Shown in pieces: positions 3,714-61,264 of a DNA stretch of 64,000 nt. Every line of letters begins with the position of its first letter. Within the stretch, counting starts at the first letter, position 1. The position numbers and the translations under genes were made by a program. The notes beneath the pieces are model-generated. The model saw only the letters and a list, made by a program, of their open reading frames with translations. It did not search any database and had not been told where the DNA came from. The stretch is from an uncultured Eubacteriales bacterium (GTDB taxonomy: Bacteria > Bacillota > Clostridia > Oscillospirales > Acutalibacteraceae), in the NCBI GenBank assembly GCA_934454655.1, contig CAKSFK010000001.1, forward strand, positions 22,358-86,357, written 5' to 3'.

Positions 3714-4737
3714 TTGTGTTGCCCCCCAACTTTTTCATTACCTTTACAATGTTCATCTGTATCGGACATTTTGCAAGACATCTGCCGCAGCCCACGCAGG
3801 AGAACATACCGTCGTTATTAGTCGGGAAATACACAAGCTTGTGCATAAACCTCTGGCGAAAGCGCTCCAGCTGTGTAAGTCTTGGCTGACCCGCGGACAT
3901 TTTGGTAAATTCGGAATACATACAGGAATCCCAGCAGCGGAAACGCTTAACGCCGTGACCGGTGTTGAAGTCCTTAATATCGTAGCACTGGCAGGTGGGG
4001 CACACAAAGGTGCAGGTGCCGCAGCCAAGGCAGCTTTCGGAAAGTTCTTTCCACTCGGGGCGGTCGAAAAATTCCTTTGTTTTGCCGCTGCCGAATGCGT
4101 CGGCTTTAAGGCCCGCCAGCGGCAGTTTTGCCATACGCTCGCGCGTTACCTTTTGCTGCTCGGTAACTGCCTTATCATCGGCGTTTTCGGTAATGCCGTC
4201 AAGCGCCTTTAAAAGCTTTTCGCCCTTTTCGGTCCTAGCGTCCATATAAAGCGCGTCTTCTGTCTTATAGCATACCACATCGCCAGCAGGCTCTGCCGCA
4301 TCTATGCCGAAGGCGGTGCAGAAACAGGTTTCATTCGGCTTTGTGCAGGCAAGCGACATGATAACCCCGTGCTCGCGGCGGTTTTTATAATAGCTGTCCT
4401 GCGGCTCTGCCAAAAACACTTTATCAAGCACATCAAAGCTCTTAACATCACAGGCACGCACGCCGAAAACCACAAAATCCTCGGTTTCGCTGCGGGTGTC
4501 TATAACCTCGATTTTCTTGCCCTCAACCTTAAAATCCATAAGATTTTCGGTTTGGGGGAAGAAGAAATCCTTTGCGCTCCTTACGGTGTTAAGCGAATCG
4601 GACAGCTTTTTGCCGTTCTCCCATTCTTCATATTTCGCGCCTGTTTTGGTATCAACCGGCATATAAAGCACATTGTTTTCTGCAATGGCGGAGAAAAGCG
4701 AATCTAATTTTTCAAGCGATATTTTACGCATTTTCAT
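3706..4737 (-). CDS. flxB: 4Fe-4S cluster protein, FlxB / AsrA / sulfhydrogenase-beta-like
   Basis: Cys motifs are CTKPNETCFC, CLGCGTCTFVCPTCQC and CVGCGRCLAKCP. It overlaps flxA by 8 nt and flxC by 14 nt, which suggests translational coupling. Confidence 0.7.
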   Translation of the reverse strand: MKMRKISLEKLDSLFSAIAENNVLYMPVDTKTGAKYEEWENGKKLSDSLNTVRSAKDFFFPQTENLMDFKVEGKKIEVIDTRSETEDFVVFGVRACDVKSFDVLDKVFLAEPQDSYYKNRREHGVIMSLACTKPNETCFCTAFGIDAAEPAGDVVCYKTEDALYMDARTEKGEKLLKALDGITENADDKAVTEQQKVTRERMAKLPLAGLKADAFGSGKTKEFFDRPEWKELSESCLGCGTCTFVCPTCQCYDIKDFNTGHGVKRFRCWDSCMYSEFTKMSAGQPRLTQLERFRQRFMHKLVYFPTNNDGMFSCVGCGRCLAKCPIQMNIVKVMKKLGGNTNG

Positions 4738-21534: not shown

Positions 21535-21585
21535 CGTTTTTAAAATTGTATTAAACCTGTTTTCACGCAAATAATAACAGCGTGA

Positions 21586-21642
21586 TTAGGCAGACGCGAA
21601 TAATCCGAACCCGCCCAAAACGGCGTATTTTCGTTTGCCTAC
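21586..21642. repeat. Miniature copy of the TAGGCAAACGAGAATAATCCGAACC MITE family (the two ends are folded back), followed by a T-run
   Basis: TTAGGCAGACGCGAATAATCCGAACCCGCCCAAAACGGCGTATTTTCGTTTGCCTAC is followed by TTTATTTTTTTTT. It shares the end sequence and the CCCAAAACGGCGTATTTTCG block with the copies at 43119 and 44561. Confidence 0.6.
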
Positions 21643-22900: not shown

Positions 22901-23364
22901 TGCCGCCCGAAAACCAGTCTTTTAATACGCCCCGAAAGAGGGCGTATTTTTCTGCGCCACAAAAACCTGGCGGGGTATGCTGCGCGGATAAAAAAGACAT
23001 ACAGGCGGTATGCTTTGCTCTTTTGGCAGTCGTAATATTTACCGTCGCGGTAAAATGCTTTCAGCACGCCCACAATGTCGTCGTCGGTCACGTCGTATTC
23101 CTTGGTAAAAAGGTTATCTCCCCTTATAACATAACCGTTTTTTGTGACCTTAAGTATTCTGTGCAGCACCAGCTTGTCATACCCCGATTTTCTGTAAAGC
23201 GGAACATCGTTTGCGCGGAGCTTACGGTTCACACGCTCAATAATCGCGATATCGCGGTGTTCTCTGAGCATCGGCTGCATACTTGTACCCGCGGTTAAAA
23301 CCGCAACCTCTTCCTGCTCCTTAAGGGCTTCATCGGCATTTTTTATACCCGTTTCGGGATTCAT
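22897..23364 (-). CDS. S24/S26-family (signal-peptidase/LexA-type) serine peptidase-like protein
   Basis: It has the nucleophile motif GTSMQPML, an HRILKV segment (candidate general-base Lys) and a GDN box (IRGDNLF). Its start overlaps the PqqD-like stop (ATGA). Confidence 0.65.
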   Translation of the reverse strand: MNPETGIKNADEALKEQEEVAVLTAGTSMQPMLREHRDIAIIERVNRKLRANDVPLYRKSGYDKLVLHRILKVTKNGYVIRGDNLFTKEYDVTDDDIVGVLKAFYRDGKYYDCQKSKAYRLYVFFIRAAYPARFLWRRKIRPLSGRIKRLVFGRH

Positions 23365-23627
23365 TCAAGAACATCCGCCTTTTTCAATTCTCCCACAAAT
23401 TCGGCCACGGTTTCACGCGCTTCCTGCTCGGTCGCGTCGGTATATTCCTTAAGCAGAGCCGAAACTATATCGTCCTCGGTAACATCGTTTTTAAGCATAT
23501 TAAAAATAAACGCGCCGGTGCCGTTCATTTTAATAAAGCCGTTAAATTTGCTCAGATCGTCCCCGACGGCAACCGCCACAATTTTATCGGCAACCTCATT
23601 GGTAACAAAATTATATTTAAGCTTCAT
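23361..23627 (-). CDS. PqqD-family protein (RiPP recognition element-like peptide chaperone)
   Basis: The 88-aa protein reads ..MNGTGAFIFNMLKNDVTEDDIVSALLKEYTDATEQEARETVAEFVGELKKADVLE, the classical PqqD pattern. The start is set at MKLKYNF (GGAG SD); the track ORF extends to 23693. Confidence 0.75.
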   Translation of the reverse strand: MKLKYNFVTNEVADKIVAVAVGDDLSKFNGFIKMNGTGAFIFNMLKNDVTEDDIVSALLKEYTDATEQEARETVAEFVGELKKADVLE

Positions 23628-23698
23628 ATCTCTTCTCCGTTTCACAAATAATGTACTGATATTGTAGCATATATTCGCTTTGTTTGCAAGCAAAAAAA

Positions 23699-23975
23699 GG
23701 CTGACGTTTACACGTCAGCCTCAGACTGTCGACAAACCCCGGTTTAACTTTGTTGCGGCGTTTACGCCGCATTTTGTTTTTCCGCTGACACGTGCGGCGG
23801 AAAAACACTTTGTAAGCGAAAAACCGCTTATTTGGCGGTTTTTCAAGGGAACAGGGGTGGTATTGGCGGGGATAGAGTGCAGTCCGAAAATCTTTGATTT
23901 TCGAGCGAACGGCATCCCCGACCAAGAGCGTGTCGACTTTTTCGACACGCTCAGGCTGACGTTTACACGTCAGCC
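23699..23975 (-). repeat. Hairpin-rich 233 bp element (core 23721-23953), copy 1, bracketed by a duplicated 22 bp stem-loop
   Basis: GGCTGACGTTTACACGTCAGCC occurs at both 23699-23720 and 23954-23975. The core is the reverse complement of 43401-43633, with about 15 mismatches and no indels by eye. Confidence 0.85.
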
Positions 23976-23997
23976 TGAGTGTGAGACTTTTTTTAAA

Positions 23998-24552
23998 TTA
24001 AGCCTTTATTTTCTTAACGGAAACAAAAGCAGCGCCTGCACAAAGAGCAAGAACAGCAAGAGCTATGGGAGCTGCTGTGTCGGCAGTCTTAGGAGATGTG
24101 CCGGTTGAAGCGGAGCCGGAGGTTGCGGCAACAAGTGCAATTTCGCCTGCTGCGGGAATTGCGGCGGTAAGCTTATTGCCGTTAACGGTTGCCTCAACAG
24201 TAGCAACAGTGCCGTCAGCCTTTTTAACAAGAAGGTATACCTTGCCGCTTGCGTTAAGACCGGAAACGGTAAACTCAACATTTAACGGATAGGTTGCGCT
24301 TGCGCTTGCAACCGCAAGGGTCTTTTTGTCAACTATCTTAAGAGCGGAATTGTCCTTCTTAAGAGCGGCGAGCGCCTCGTCGAATACGCTGTCGGCAACG
24401 GTGCTGTTCTTAACGGAAACAGTAGCGCCTTTGCTTGAAACAGCTGTGATAATGCCGGTAACCTTTTCCGGAGAATCCGCAGCGGAAGCTACGGTTGCGA
24501 AGGCTGTTACTGCCAACGCGAGTGTCAGTACGATTGAAAATACCTTTTTCAT
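23998..24552 (-). CDS. Secreted cell-wall-anchored surface protein (sortase substrate)
   Basis: It has a signal peptide (MKKVFSIVLTLALAVTAFATVASA). The C-terminal sorting signal is SPKTAD, a hydrophobic stretch (AAPIALAVLALCAGAAFVSV) and a basic tail (KKIKA). Its start overlaps the LCP gene stop. Confidence 0.7.
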   Translation of the reverse strand: MKKVFSIVLTLALAVTAFATVASAADSPEKVTGIITAVSSKGATVSVKNSTVADSVFDEALAALKKDNSALKIVDKKTLAVASASATYPLNVEFTVSGLNASGKVYLLVKKADGTVATVEATVNGNKLTAAIPAAGEIALVAATSGSASTGTSPKTADTAAPIALAVLALCAGAAFVSVKKIKA

Positions 24553-29499: not shown

Positions 29500-29575
29500 G
29501 AAATCCGTTTTTGAACGCGGATTCGGATTATTTTCGTTTGCTTAGTGTGACAGGTTCGAGTCCTGTCACACTAAG
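29500..29575. repeat. Solo MITE end fused to a 35 bp perfect palindromic element
   Basis: GAAATCCGTTTTTGAACGCGGATTCGGATTATTTTCGTTTG matches the right end of the 44561-44839 element. It is followed by CTTAGTGTGACAGG-TTCGAGT-CCTGTCACACTAAG (29541-29575), a 14 bp stem with a 7 nt loop. Confidence 0.7.
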
Positions 29576-29591
29576 CTGAAGCTGTCATTCT

Positions 29592-43042: not shown

Positions 43043-43089
43043 GCTCCCCTTGTCAGGGGAGCTGTCACCGCAGGTGACTGAGGGGTAGT
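43043..43089. repeat. 47 nt double-hairpin repeat, copy 1
   Basis: GCTCCCCTTGTCAGGGGAGCTGTCACCGCAGGTGACTGAGGGGTAGT is identical to 60644-60690. It contains two stem-loops, GCTCCCCT/AGGGGAGC and GTCACC/GGTGAC. Confidence 0.85.
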
Positions 43090-43118
43090 AGGAAAGATTT
43101 TAATAAAGCATTTTCTAC

Positions 43119-43281
43119 CTTAGGCAAACGAGAATAATCCGAACCCATTTTTTGAGTGCGGATTTCTCGCATTGCCGCGTTAAAATACTCGTTAATCCTT
43201 TCGCCTTATAAAGACGACAAGTGAAAATACGCCGAAAATACGCCGTTTTGGGCGGGTTCTGATTATTCTCGCTTGCCTAGG
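43119..43281 (-). mobile_element. MITE, internally deleted copy (about 163 bp), with imperfect terminal inverted repeats
   Basis: The ends are CTTAGGCAAACGAGAATAATCCGAACCC and GGGTTCTGATTATTCTCGCTTGCCTAG. The interior is the reverse complement of the 44561-44839 copy, minus a central block of roughly 115 bp. It has no ORF. Confidence 0.7.
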
Positions 43282-43370
43282 CAAGCCGTGCCGCCGACAG
43301 CACCTTTTCCCGCACCGCGGGGAGCAACTCCGTCGGATAGAAATTTAAAGAGTCTTTCAACATACACAGT

Positions 43371-43663
43371 GGGGCTGAAAACATAAGTTTTCAGCCCCAC
43401 TGAGCGTGTCGAAAAAGTCGACACGCTCTTGGTCGGGGATGCCGTTCGCTCGAAAATCAAAGATTTTCGGACTGCTCTCTATCCCCGCCAATACCACCCC
43501 TGCTCCCTTGAAAAACCGCCGGACAAGCGGTTTTTCGCTTACAAGGTGTTTTTCCGCCGCACGTGTCGGCGGAAAAACAAAATGCGGCGTGAACGCCGCA
43601 TCAAAGTCAGACTGTGGTTTATCGACAGTCTGAACGGGGCTGAAAACATAAGTTTTCAGCCCC
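43371..43663 (+). repeat. Hairpin-rich 233 bp element (core 43401-43633), copy 2, bracketed by a duplicated 28 bp stem-loop
   Basis: GGGGCTGAAAACATAAGTTTTCAGCCCC occurs at 43371-43398 and 43636-43663. The core is inverted relative to copy 1 and has the same length. Confidence 0.85.
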
Positions 43664-43706
43664 GCTGTTTATCGCGTGAAAAGCGCTGTGTATTGATTTA
43701 ACCGCG

Positions 43707-44188: not shown

Positions 44189-44264
<76 letters not shown>

Positions 44265-44560
44265 GAATATACGACAATTTTCATCCTTAGTGTGGCAGGA
44301 CTCGAACCTGCCGCGGTTTCGCTCGCCGCCTTTTAGATTGCGGCTTTGCGTTCATTTTTGCAAGGCGTCAGCCTTGCTGCAAATTTCTCGCTTCGCCGAA
44401 TAAAATTAAAGCGGCAGAAACTTTTAACCTACCGAAACTGAAAATTTTGTCATAAGACGAAGCCGACTAAACGCAGGAATACTGCCGTATTTCAAGTTTT
44501 GAGGCAATGTATTATGCAAAATTTTGTTTCGTAGGCGTGGCAGGTTCGAGTCCTGTCACA

Positions 44561-44839
44561 CTAGGCAAGCGAGAATAATCCGAACCTGCCCAAAACGGTG
44601 TATTTTCGGCGTATTTTCACTTGTCGTCTTTATAAGGCGAAAGCCTTATCGCATCCTCCGCATAAAAATCCACACGAAAATCGCGCTCGTTTTGGGTCGA
44701 AGATTTTTTGAGGAGCGGATTTTTTGCAGAGCAAGGCACAAAACGCAGTTAATCCTAACGGATTAACGAGTATTTTAACGCGGCAATGCGAGAAATCCGC
44801 GCTCTAAAAACGGGTTCGGATTATTCTCGTTTGCCTAAG
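44561..44839 (+). mobile_element. MITE, full-length copy (about 279 bp), with about 28 bp terminal inverted repeats
   Basis: The ends are CTAGGCAAGCGAGAATAATCCGAACC and GGGTTCGGATTATTCTCGTTTGCCTAAG. It has no credible ORF. Fragments of the same family occur at 21586, 29500 and 50898, with degenerate traces at 17295 and 61200. Confidence 0.75.
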
Positions 44840-50897: not shown

Positions 50898-50960
50898 CGT
50901 AAGATCCGAATCCGTTTTTCGGGCGCGGATTTCTCGCGTTGCCGCATTATAATATCCGCA
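50898..50960 (-). repeat. Partial MITE copy (internal plus right-end segment) just upstream of the MBOAT gene
   Basis: The reverse complement ..AATGCGGCAACGCGAGAAATCCGCGCCCGAAAAACGGATTCGGATC.. aligns with 44778-44825. Confidence 0.55.
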
Positions 50961-57512: not shown

Positions 57513-57826
57513 TTGACAAAACCGCGGCACGGTGATATATTGTTAACAACAGAAAAAAACCTACGATTAAGAAGAGTAACTTTACCGAAAGTGTTTAGAG
57601 AGCGGTTGACGGTGGAAATACCGCGGCGGAAAGTAAAGCGAATGGACTTATGAGGGCGGCACGAAAGCTTTTTAAGTTAGTAGCGGCCGACGGGGACCGC
57701 ACCCGTTACCAGGGCGGCTTACATAATGAGGTGTAAGGAACGAGCGGTCGGCACAGCCGACAACTTGGGTGGTACCGCAGGATTACAAGTCTTGTCCCAT
57801 ATTTTATATGGGATAAGGCTTTTTTG
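57513..57826 (+). promoter_or_regulatory. Promoter plus T-box riboswitch leader with a UGG (Trp) specifier
   Basis: The promoter is TTGACA (57513-57518), 17 nt, an extended -10 TGaTATATT. An AGAGAG box and GGTGGAAA distal loop are present. The specifier context is GAA-TGG-A (TGG at 57643-57645). The T-box sequence is AACTTGGGTGGTACCGCAG (57762-57780). A terminator hairpin plus T-run spans 57791-57826. Confidence 0.8.
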
Positions 57827-60563: not shown

Positions 60564-60579
60564 AGCCTAAAAGAAACAG

Positions 60580-60626
60580 AGCCTGCTGTTATCGGTTATA
60601 CCGATAGCAACAGGCTTTATTTTTCG
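60580..60626 (+). terminator. Rho-independent terminator of the ABC operon
   Basis: AGCCTGCTGTTATCGG-ttata-CCGATAGCAACAGGCT is followed by TTATTTTT. Confidence 0.7.
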
Positions 60627-60627
60627 A

Positions 60628-60810
60628 TTAGGACTGTTTTAAAGCTCCCCTTGTCAGGGGAGCTGTCACCGCAGGTGACTGAGGGGTAGTCGGGAAAAGC
60701 TTTGTTCCGTGTGACCTTCCGTCCCAGAACGCAATTACACAGTCAGCATAATCAATTATAGACAAATTGCTTACCGTAAGTCCCCTTGAACCAATTACCG
60801 CTATCTTCAT
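60628..60810 (-). pseudogene. Remnant of a DUF2493/SLOG-family (YspA/DprA-like) gene
   Basis: MKIAVIGSRG.. and ..ADCVIAFWDGRSHGT are the two conserved ends of the family, but the middle is missing. The reading frame then runs into the 47 nt repeat (..AVTAPLTRGA..). Confidence 0.5.
60644..60690. repeat. 47 nt double-hairpin repeat, copy 2
   Basis: It is identical to 43043-43089. A degenerate third copy lies at about 61223-61250. Confidence 0.85.
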
Positions 60811-60912
60811 ATTATCACCGTTTTCTTATATTTATTTAAATTATAATTCCGTATCGGAATTATGTCAAGGAATAATCACTTTATAATAATAAAAAATATT
60901 ATGGGTGATGAT

Positions 60913-61152
60913 ATGAAACTCAGAAAAAGTGAATACGGAACCTGCAATATGATAGGTAAAAATGTTGAACGCCTGCGAAAAGAAGCAGGCATAAAACAAA
61001 ACAATTTTATAGCAAAACTTCAAACTATGGGACTTGATATTAATCCGACAAGTTATTCAAAACTTGAAGGACAAATCAGAATTGCCACAGACAAAGAAGT
61101 CTTTTATATTTCCAAGGCATTAAACATTAGTTTGGAAGAACTTTTTAAATAA
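60913..61152 (+). CDS. XRE-family helix-turn-helix protein (AT-rich, probably acquired)
   Basis: The HTH_3 pattern is IGKNVERLRKEAGIKQNNFIAKLQTMGLDINPTSYSKLEG. A GGTGA SD precedes MKLRKS. The segment is visibly more AT-rich than its flanks. Confidence 0.75.
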   Translation: MKLRKSEYGTCNMIGKNVERLRKEAGIKQNNFIAKLQTMGLDINPTSYSKLEGQIRIATDKEVFYISKALNISLEELFK

Positions 61153-61156
61153 ATCA

Positions 61157-61203
61157 AAGCCTGTTGCCATCGGCTGAGCCGATGGCAACAGGCTTTGATT
61201 TTC
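61157..61203 (+). terminator. Rho-independent terminator (diverged duplicate of the 60580 hairpin)
   Basis: AAAGCCTGTTGCCATCGG-ctga-GCCGATGGCAACAGGCTTT is followed by GATTTT. Confidence 0.65.
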
Positions 61204-61264
61204 GATCGGATTATTTTAAGGTTCTCCTTATCAGGTGACTGAAGAATAATCCGAATAGCCTTTT

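Follow-up and report, generated by a model that had tools for sequence, protein, structure and literature searches.

A miniature transposable element family of gut Oscillospiraceae that inserts at terminator hairpins and duplicates the entire target stem-loop

The 64-kb stretch of DNA analysed here (from now on referred to as the window) contains two copies of a multi-copy, non-autonomous MITE family of about 175-340 bp that is found in gut Oscillospiraceae/Ruminococcaceae. The family prefers to insert at the foot of GC-rich palindromes lying between A and T runs, i.e. at intrinsic terminators, and insertion there leaves one complete copy of the target stem-loop on each side of the element, while an 8-bp duplication is the default on ordinary AT-rich DNA. 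Taken as a whole, we consider it likely that this is a MITE family with structure-guided hairpin duplication that is moved in trans by a DDE transposase, most likely of the IS1182 family.

Copy 1 is 231 bp long and occupies positions 23722-23952 of the window on the plus strand, as established by flank reading, inter-copy alignment and folding. It starts with a left terminal inverted repeat, CAGACTGTCGACAAAC (23722-23737), and ends in a fold-back hairpin, GAGCGTGTCGACTTTTTCGACACGCTC (23926-23952), with four further stem-loops in its interior. It is located between two minus-strand genes. The first (23998-24552) has sortase and LytR genes as neighbours and encodes a secreted protein of 184 aa that carries a signal peptide and an SPKTA signal for cell-wall sorting; the second, located downstream, is an 88-aa PqqD-family gene (23361-23627). 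The plus strand contains exactly two occurrences of the 22-mer GGCTGACGTTTACACGTCAGCC (23699-23720 and 23954-23975); in shuffles the expected number is zero. The initial annotation was right about the two stem-loop copies but gave their length as 22 bp, whereas the true duplication is the 24-bp terminator stem-loop AGGCTGACGTTTACACGTCAGCCT, present in its entirety as a distal copy at 23698-23721 and as a gene-proximal copy at 23953-23976; the core itself measures 231 bp and not the 233 bp originally proposed. Read on the minus strand, the 184-aa gene (end at 23998) is followed by the hairpin without a T-run, the core, the hairpin with TTTTTTT, a promoter-like site and the PqqD-family gene. The sequence itself shows that the surface-protein gene, the owner of this split terminator, retains its hairpin and loses the adjoining U-tract: the gene-proximal hairpin now abuts element sequence, with GAGCG in place of the U-tract, and the T-run is displaced. 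The intact terminator has moved 255 bp downstream, to a position just before the promoter-like site of the next gene. If transcription reads through at this locus, the element would join the 3' UTR. The orientation of copy 1 puts the less stable element strand into the surface-protein transcript.

Empty sites were searched for by looking up both flanking proteins in public assemblies, which gave contigs of sister strains that match the window at about 99% identity. In the interval separating the same pair of genes, eight of these contigs (L001/L115, L114, L116, L117, L118, L120, L121, L123) contain a single hairpin, CACTTAGGCTGACGT-loop-ACGTCAGCCTTTTTTTGC, followed by the T-run. Filled contigs read hairpin-element-hairpin and differ from the empty site by the addition of the 231-bp element and of one more copy of precisely the 24-bp stem-loop, the intergenic distance being 115 bp when empty and 370 bp when filled. 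The comparison of one hairpin and T-run with two hairpins shows that, as first suggested, the element inserted into an intact terminator. Presence of the element is polymorphic inside one species, and several assemblies of the window's own species break within the element. Because the empty site carries one hairpin, the hairpin is target DNA that was duplicated on insertion and not a part of the element. The identity of the flanks within a locus would fit a reading in which the hairpins are terminal direct repeats of the element or att-type core sites of a site-specific recombinase, yet the empty site has exactly one copy and every locus has a different hairpin, so that this reading is already refuted and we assign it practically no probability.

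The loop of the empty-site hairpin is GTAA at six empty sites and TTAC at three others, the stem being unchanged, and its orientation separates L001/L115 and L120 from L114, L116, L117, L118, L121 and L123. Loop inversion was considered as a signature of insertion, since the first empty site was inverted relative to both flanks, and was rejected because most empty sites share the loop of the filled site. The loop flip is an independent polymorphism and no mark of insertion. Opposite loops were also seen in the two hairpin copies flanking a single MITE, in L048 (2045-2345) and L013 (about 4100-4420, minus orientation), with the loops reading TAAT vs ATTA and TTTTACAA vs CTGTAAAG. Such flips of terminator-palindrome loops resemble the product of repeated inversion, or of template switching, inside the palindrome.

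Copy 2 (231 bp, 43402-43632, minus strand) is inverted relative to copy 1, has the same length and differs from it by 14 substitutions (93.9% identity). The existence of this second copy, its equal length and its different flanking hairpin had been recognised in the initial annotation, while its bounds and the count of about 15 substitutions are corrected here. The target-site duplication of copy 2 is a different and perfectly palindromic hairpin, AGTGGGGCTGAAAACATAAGTTTTCAGCCCCACT, at 43368-43401, and its second copy, AACGGGGCTGAAAACATAAGTTTTCAGCCCCGCT, at 43633-43666 carries three mismatches. The 28 bp first given for this hairpin hold for the exact repeat, GGGGCTGAAAACATAAGTTTTCAGCCCC at 43371-43398 and 43636-43663; allowing the three mismatches, the full duplication grows to 34 bp. 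Two of the three differences fall on the third and third-from-last bases (T..A vs C..G), which are stem partners, and both hairpins remain paired at this point. This compensating pair suggests selection on both hairpins or self-correction inside the palindrome. A look-up for the empty site of copy 2 recovered one contig, which ends within the element.

Several other repeats and features were observed in the window. A second MITE-like repeat family, whose inverted repeats measure about 26 bp (TAGGCAARCGAGAATAATCCGAACC), is present at 43121-43281, 44561-44839, 21577-21633, 29517-29554 and 50904-50954, with copies clustering around a tRNA-Ala gene (44189-44264), and tRNA-3'-end-like sequences are found at 29532-29576 and 44522-44566. 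A 53-nt double hairpin beginning with GCTCCCCTTGTCAGGGGAGCTGTCACCGCAGGTGACTGAGGGG occurs at 43043-43095 and 60644-60696 (96% identity, 17.6 kb apart), each copy directly downstream of another hairpin. Two long hairpins at 60568-60628 and 61146-61206, spaced by 578 bp, have the same orientation and a likeness of 77%, and the small ORF between them (about 60915-61153) resembles an XRE-type helix-turn-helix protein; the pair (60568-61206) may be an older hairpin-duplicating insertion. A T-box leader (Rfam RF00230, 103.7 bits) is located at 57554-57802, upstream of an ABC-transporter-like operon.

Relatives of the element were collected by scanning one genome per species with the right-end hairpin, GAGCGTGTCGA-N5-TCGACACGCTC, as the query. 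At least 105 stretches matched; nearly all of them come from gut MAGs of Oscillospiraceae/Ruminococcaceae, and one isolate, Acetanaerobacterium elongatum, is also represented. Among the matches listed, two assemblies contribute at least nine loci each, and 25 matches are full-length relatives of the core with 81-91% identity. Other subfamilies of 175-340 bp have the same ends and different interiors.

Insertion boundaries were defined by the conserved element ends. Whether other copies carry duplicated, locus-specific hairpins had been put forward as a check, and 38 independent insertions in other genomes do so: the direct repeats, 21-37 bp long, adjoin the element ends with zero offset and each repeat is a different stem-loop located between A and T runs. 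When positions are compared in mirror image (first with last, second with second-last, etc.), 75% of pairs in the 38 duplications are complementary, which means that the duplications are centred on a palindrome. The first base is A in 35 and the last base T in 28-30 of the 38, most duplications end about two bases or less from the stem foot, and duplication length follows stem-loop size. Of about 45 insertions, 38 are at hairpins. At five sites lacking a hairpin the duplication is AT-rich and 8 bp long (ATATTATT, AATATAAT, AAAGTAAA, ATAGA(A/G)AT and AAATATA(G/T)), and these repeats also span A to T or A. Insertions occupy 3' UTR positions, and element orientation relative to the flanking A/T runs is unbiased (13 vs 17, with 8 ties). 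A few copies (L053, L055, L080, L084) have a one-sided hairpin or degraded repeats. At L021 (2693-3227), two different family members are arranged head to tail with no hairpin between them, inside one 42-bp hairpin duplication; the two may have moved together as a composite, or the second may have landed exactly where the first ends.

These junctions are most naturally read as the product of a structure-directed mechanism. Such a mechanism had been proposed in place of a staggered cut, and the 38 palindrome-centred duplications, which a fixed cut on B-form DNA leaves unexplained, support it. Unusually long and variable staggered cuts have been reported for IS1634 and IS1549, and the spread of duplication lengths from 21 to 37 bp could be accommodated by such a cut on ordinary duplex DNA, with the hairpins coinciding through a taste for intergenic, AT-flanked regions. 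However, the centring on palindromes with ends mostly no more than about two bases from the stem foot, the dependence of length on stem-loop size and the fixed 8 bp at non-hairpin sites all argue against a long variable cut, which we regard as very improbable.

The element has imperfect terminal inverted repeats of roughly nAGnCTGTnGAnAAA, with CAGTCTGTCGATAAAC at the left end and GAGCGTGTCGAAAAAG at the right end when read inward. Left-end variants are CAGCCTGTAGAAAAAC and TAGGCTGTTGAAAAAG, and the shared imperfect end repeat of about 16 bp, nAGnnTGTnGAnAAA, is conserved across subfamilies. The right repeat folds onto an inner inverted copy of itself, resulting in a perfect 27-nt terminal hairpin with an 11-bp stem and a 5-nt loop. 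The 231-bp element has no coding capacity, its sole ORFs being mechanical (75 aa). A non-coding, multi-copy sequence with inverted repeats and target duplications is a MITE, and this one probably belongs to a DDE-type insertion-sequence lineage. The initial annotation had set the insertion apart from staggered transposase cuts. Its hairpin targeting stands, but the terminal inverted repeats and the 8-bp duplications away from hairpins place the element within known transposon biology. Searches against Rfam returned no family at gathering thresholds, with two sub-threshold chance matches only, and the core had no match in plasmid or phage records. IS200/IS605-derived palindrome-associated elements and REP/REPIN sequences make no target duplication, insert 3' of a fixed tetra- or pentanucleotide and have subterminal hairpins; the element was not assigned to them because it has target duplications and no fixed flanking oligonucleotide. 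Classical MITEs such as Correia, RUP, ERIC and Chunjie are likewise small, non-coding, intergenic and strongly folding, with inverted repeats and many copies per genome (PMC10969869). They generate short fixed duplications (TA or a few bp), whereas the element described here duplicates an entire hairpin. A review of bacterial MITEs mentions no duplication of an entire target hairpin (PMC10969869).

The five internal stem-loops initially described are all present. The region folds much more stably than shuffles do (z = -12 as RNA and -10.8 as DNA). Substitutions between the two copies in the window fall mostly in loops, as had been noted: 10 of 14 are located in the 96 unpaired columns and four in the 144 paired columns, and two of these four are T/C changes opposite G. 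A consensus fold derived from 16 distinct copies contains 72 pairs, with 97.4% of cells paired. Both-sided changes are found in 14 pairs, compared with 5.2 +/- 1.5 in shuffles and 1-4 when partners are slid by 1-3 columns, which supports the structural constraint on the core suggested earlier. The fold is strand-asymmetric, with 71 G-T cells vs 3 A-C cells, and the CAG...GCTC strand is lower in free energy in 16 of 16 copies (mean -101 vs -91 kcal/mol).

Such compensatory changes and strand asymmetry, together with the 3' UTR positions of the insertions, could indicate that the core is mainly a structure, in RNA or DNA, that the host has recruited for a function, for example as a 3' UTR stabiliser, small RNA or terminator module, and that it was spread by selection and not by selfish transposition. 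We consider this improbable. The core matches no Rfam family, its presence varies within one species, and hairpins serving transposase binding or a single-stranded intermediate would be conserved equally well. Further, the unbiased orientation and the placement of the weaker strand in the copy 1 transcript lead us to read the structure as the element's own property. The fold may thus be involved in transposase binding, in a single-stranded intermediate or in a transcript of the element itself, with a host RNA function being less likely.

The transposase would be a DDE enzyme supplied in trans, and its most likely source, which we infer from the element ends, is an IS1182-family insertion sequence. 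Assignment of the element itself to the IS1182 family is probable, if somewhat less secure than the overall reading, and rests on comparison of the end sequences. The IS1182 set used comprised IS1272, ISClbu1, plasmid-borne copies of Enterococcus and Lactiplantibacillus, 33 viral-contig loci and Faecalibacterium-type copies with their flanks. IS1182 transposases carry DUF772 (PF05598) and DDE_Tnp_1_6 (PF13751) domains, and the terminal repeats of the family are of the GGGGCTGT(T/C)GCA.. / GAGGCTGTGACATAAG type. Ends in the set include GGGGCTGTTGCAAAAC, GGGGCTGTCGCACTAA, GAGGCTGTGACATAAGTC and GAGTCTGGGACATAAACC. Scored with a weight matrix built from 34 IS1182 ends, the MITE ends rank in the top 0.13% to 0.004% of all 16-mers of the window, the motif being short. 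The best end match is to IS1182 elements of Oscillospiraceae (TAGGCTGTTGAAAAAG vs GGGGCTGTTGCAAAAC, 12/16 bases). The MITE and two IS1182 insertion sequences share an end asymmetry, with one CTGT end and one CG(C/T)GT or GCGT end, and many ends in the set likewise fold back onto an inner inverted copy, as seen for ISClbu1 and for several IS1182 elements from IMG/VR and Faecalibacterium. IS1182 insertion sequences are abundant in the same bacterial family, e.g. in Faecalibacterium. The motif GGnnCTGTTGCAAA is, however, typical of IS6-family ends too, and IS6 elements make 8-bp duplications, so that end similarity alone cannot fix the family.

The outcome of insertion in the presumed IS1182 relatives is the opposite of that seen for the MITE. 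Hairpin duplication was observed in 0 of about 20 distinct IS1182 elements examined. Some of these elements have lost the stem-loop and have an A-run on one side and a T-run on the other; the rest are bordered by half-stems that are inverted complements of each other. An IS1182-like parent of the MITE would therefore have to attack with opposite polarity. Direct repeats of the IS1182 family are listed as 0-60 bp in ISfinder, and the outcome may vary within the family. Faecalibacterium-type IS1182 elements of about 1.86 kb (L223-L233, L238-L247) lie between an A-run and a T-run without stem-loop or duplication, which is IS1272-like hairpin replacement within the same bacterial family; in L238 the right end of the insertion sequence is tandemly duplicated. 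The Oscillospiraceae IS1182 elements, such as the 1862-bp Faecalibacterium insertion sequence (L223-L233), share with the MITE their host clade, ends with fold-back (GGGGCTGTTGCAAAA) and terminator positions between A and T runs, but not the target duplication. Their ends differ from those of the MITE at no fewer than 4 of 16 positions, making them unlikely to be the direct parent.

IS1272 and TnSha1, IS1182-family elements of Staphylococcus, target stem-loops, mostly intrinsic terminators, with no primary-sequence consensus, and part of the stem-loop is deleted with no target duplication (PMC4923244, PMC5678879). Insertion into palindromes and terminator hairpins is thus common to IS1272 and the element. 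Their terminal repeats are related (GAGTCTGGGACATAAACC in IS1272 vs CAGTCTGTCGATAAACC in the element), and IS1272/TnSha1 likewise have terminal stem-loops and insert directly downstream of genes. IS1272 is autonomous, 1.9 kb long and encodes a transposase, whereas the element is 231 bp long and non-coding. The outcomes also differ, as IS1272 partly removes or replaces the stem-loop while the element keeps and duplicates it.

Searches for the parent gave the following results. An autonomous copy with these ends turned up neither in the roughly 750 kb of DNA flanking the elements nor in plasmid records, phage records or viral contigs. When left repeats and right hairpins lying 0.6-6 kb apart were matched up, only spurious pairs resulted, and comparing all loci with each other revealed no repeat of at least 500 bp. 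The ORFs that recur close to the hairpins, considered as candidates for the parent transposase, turned out to be housekeeping genes such as MatE, PBP5, EF-G and FeoB. A phmmer search of every ORF in the element loci for the IS1272 transposase returned nothing, and tblastn of 124 IS1182 transposases against the MITEs revealed no transposase remnant. In viral contigs, the left repeat had chance matches inside phage genes only and the right hairpin had no match. A repeat-like string beside an IS1182 end in L235 lies within a coding region and was dismissed as chance.

An alternative parentage has to be weighed against these data. The element could be a MITE of another family that generates 8-bp duplications (e.g. 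IS6, ISL3 or IS1595) or of an undescribed transposase, its likeness to IS1182 ends being due to convergence. The 8-bp duplications at non-hairpin sites would fit this, no IS1182 insertion sequence examined duplicates hairpins, no parent was found in the DNA searched, and IS6-family ends (GGTTCTGTTGCAAAGT) also fit the end motif of the element. On the other hand, the top end match is to Oscillospiraceae IS1182 elements and the fold-back terminal hairpins recur in the IS1182 elements examined. To our knowledge, neither such hairpins nor terminator-hairpin targeting has been described for IS6, ISL3 or IS1595, so we consider a parent from these families or from an undescribed one unlikely, though deserving of attention. 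Terminator-hairpin targeting has been reported for IS1272, a member of the IS1182 family (PMC4923244, PMC5678879).

Returning to a DDE transposase acting in trans, a cruciform mechanism can be deduced from the outcome. Such an enzyme would normally attack with an 8-bp 5' stagger. With the target palindrome extruded as a cruciform or hairpin, the 5'-foot phosphates of the top- and bottom-strand stem-loops would be brought close to each other across the junction. Strand transfer at the two 5' feet would leave each stem-loop as a single-stranded gap, one on each side of the element, and gap repair synthesis would then yield a complete hairpin on both sides. Duplication length would be set by the hairpin (21-37 bp) and not by the enzyme. 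The target state may be a cruciform driven by supercoiling or a hairpin on single-stranded DNA at the replication fork. Wan et al. 2017 drew a cruciform model in which stem-loops attacked at their 3' feet are removed, giving the IS1272 outcome, while attack at the 5' feet (Fig. 13, pathway b) would duplicate the entire stem-loop, an alternative that was drawn without examples (PMC5678879). Pathway b has the same outcome as the element; there it is only drawn, here it is dominant in 38 insertions. Whole-hairpin duplication, previously a hypothetical pathway from 2017 and hardly documented, is now seen many times in this family.

CRISPR spacer integration by Cas1-Cas2 and casposons offer a further parallel, as staggered attacks flanking a partly palindromic repeat duplicate the entire repeat. 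The element has DDE-type inverted repeats, and neither a Cas1-type enzyme nor a leader is implied; the likeness is an analogy of outcome only.

A bolder and rather doubtful proposal is that an undescribed transposase clade, IS1182-like or not, reads the four-way junction or hairpin foot of an extruded terminator and joins with 5'-foot polarity, creating a second complete terminator each time. If true, this would be a natural and abundant case of a DDE enzyme that chooses its targets by structure alone, and in a major group of gut bacteria terminator architecture would be systematically rewritten, along with 3' UTRs. In that case the covarying internal hairpins, with their strand asymmetry, could indicate a single-stranded transposition intermediate.

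Target choice based on shape rather than sequence is known for few transposons, and the mechanism of the IS1182 family has so far been only a drawing. The MITE family offers dozens of natural insertions with exact junctions, plus empty sites, and provides a rule for biochemical models: cuts at A...T stem feet, a duplication as long as the hairpin, and 8 bp elsewhere. The element is the mirror image of the hairpin-deleting IS1272, and the pair could reveal what sets the polarity of attack on a cruciform. Short-read assemblies break at terminators carrying the element. With every insertion the hairpin of a gene is cut off from the U-tract and a complete second terminator arises 200-300 bp downstream, and termination efficiency, 3' UTR length and mRNA stability could thereby change at many genes of abundant gut Oscillospiraceae.
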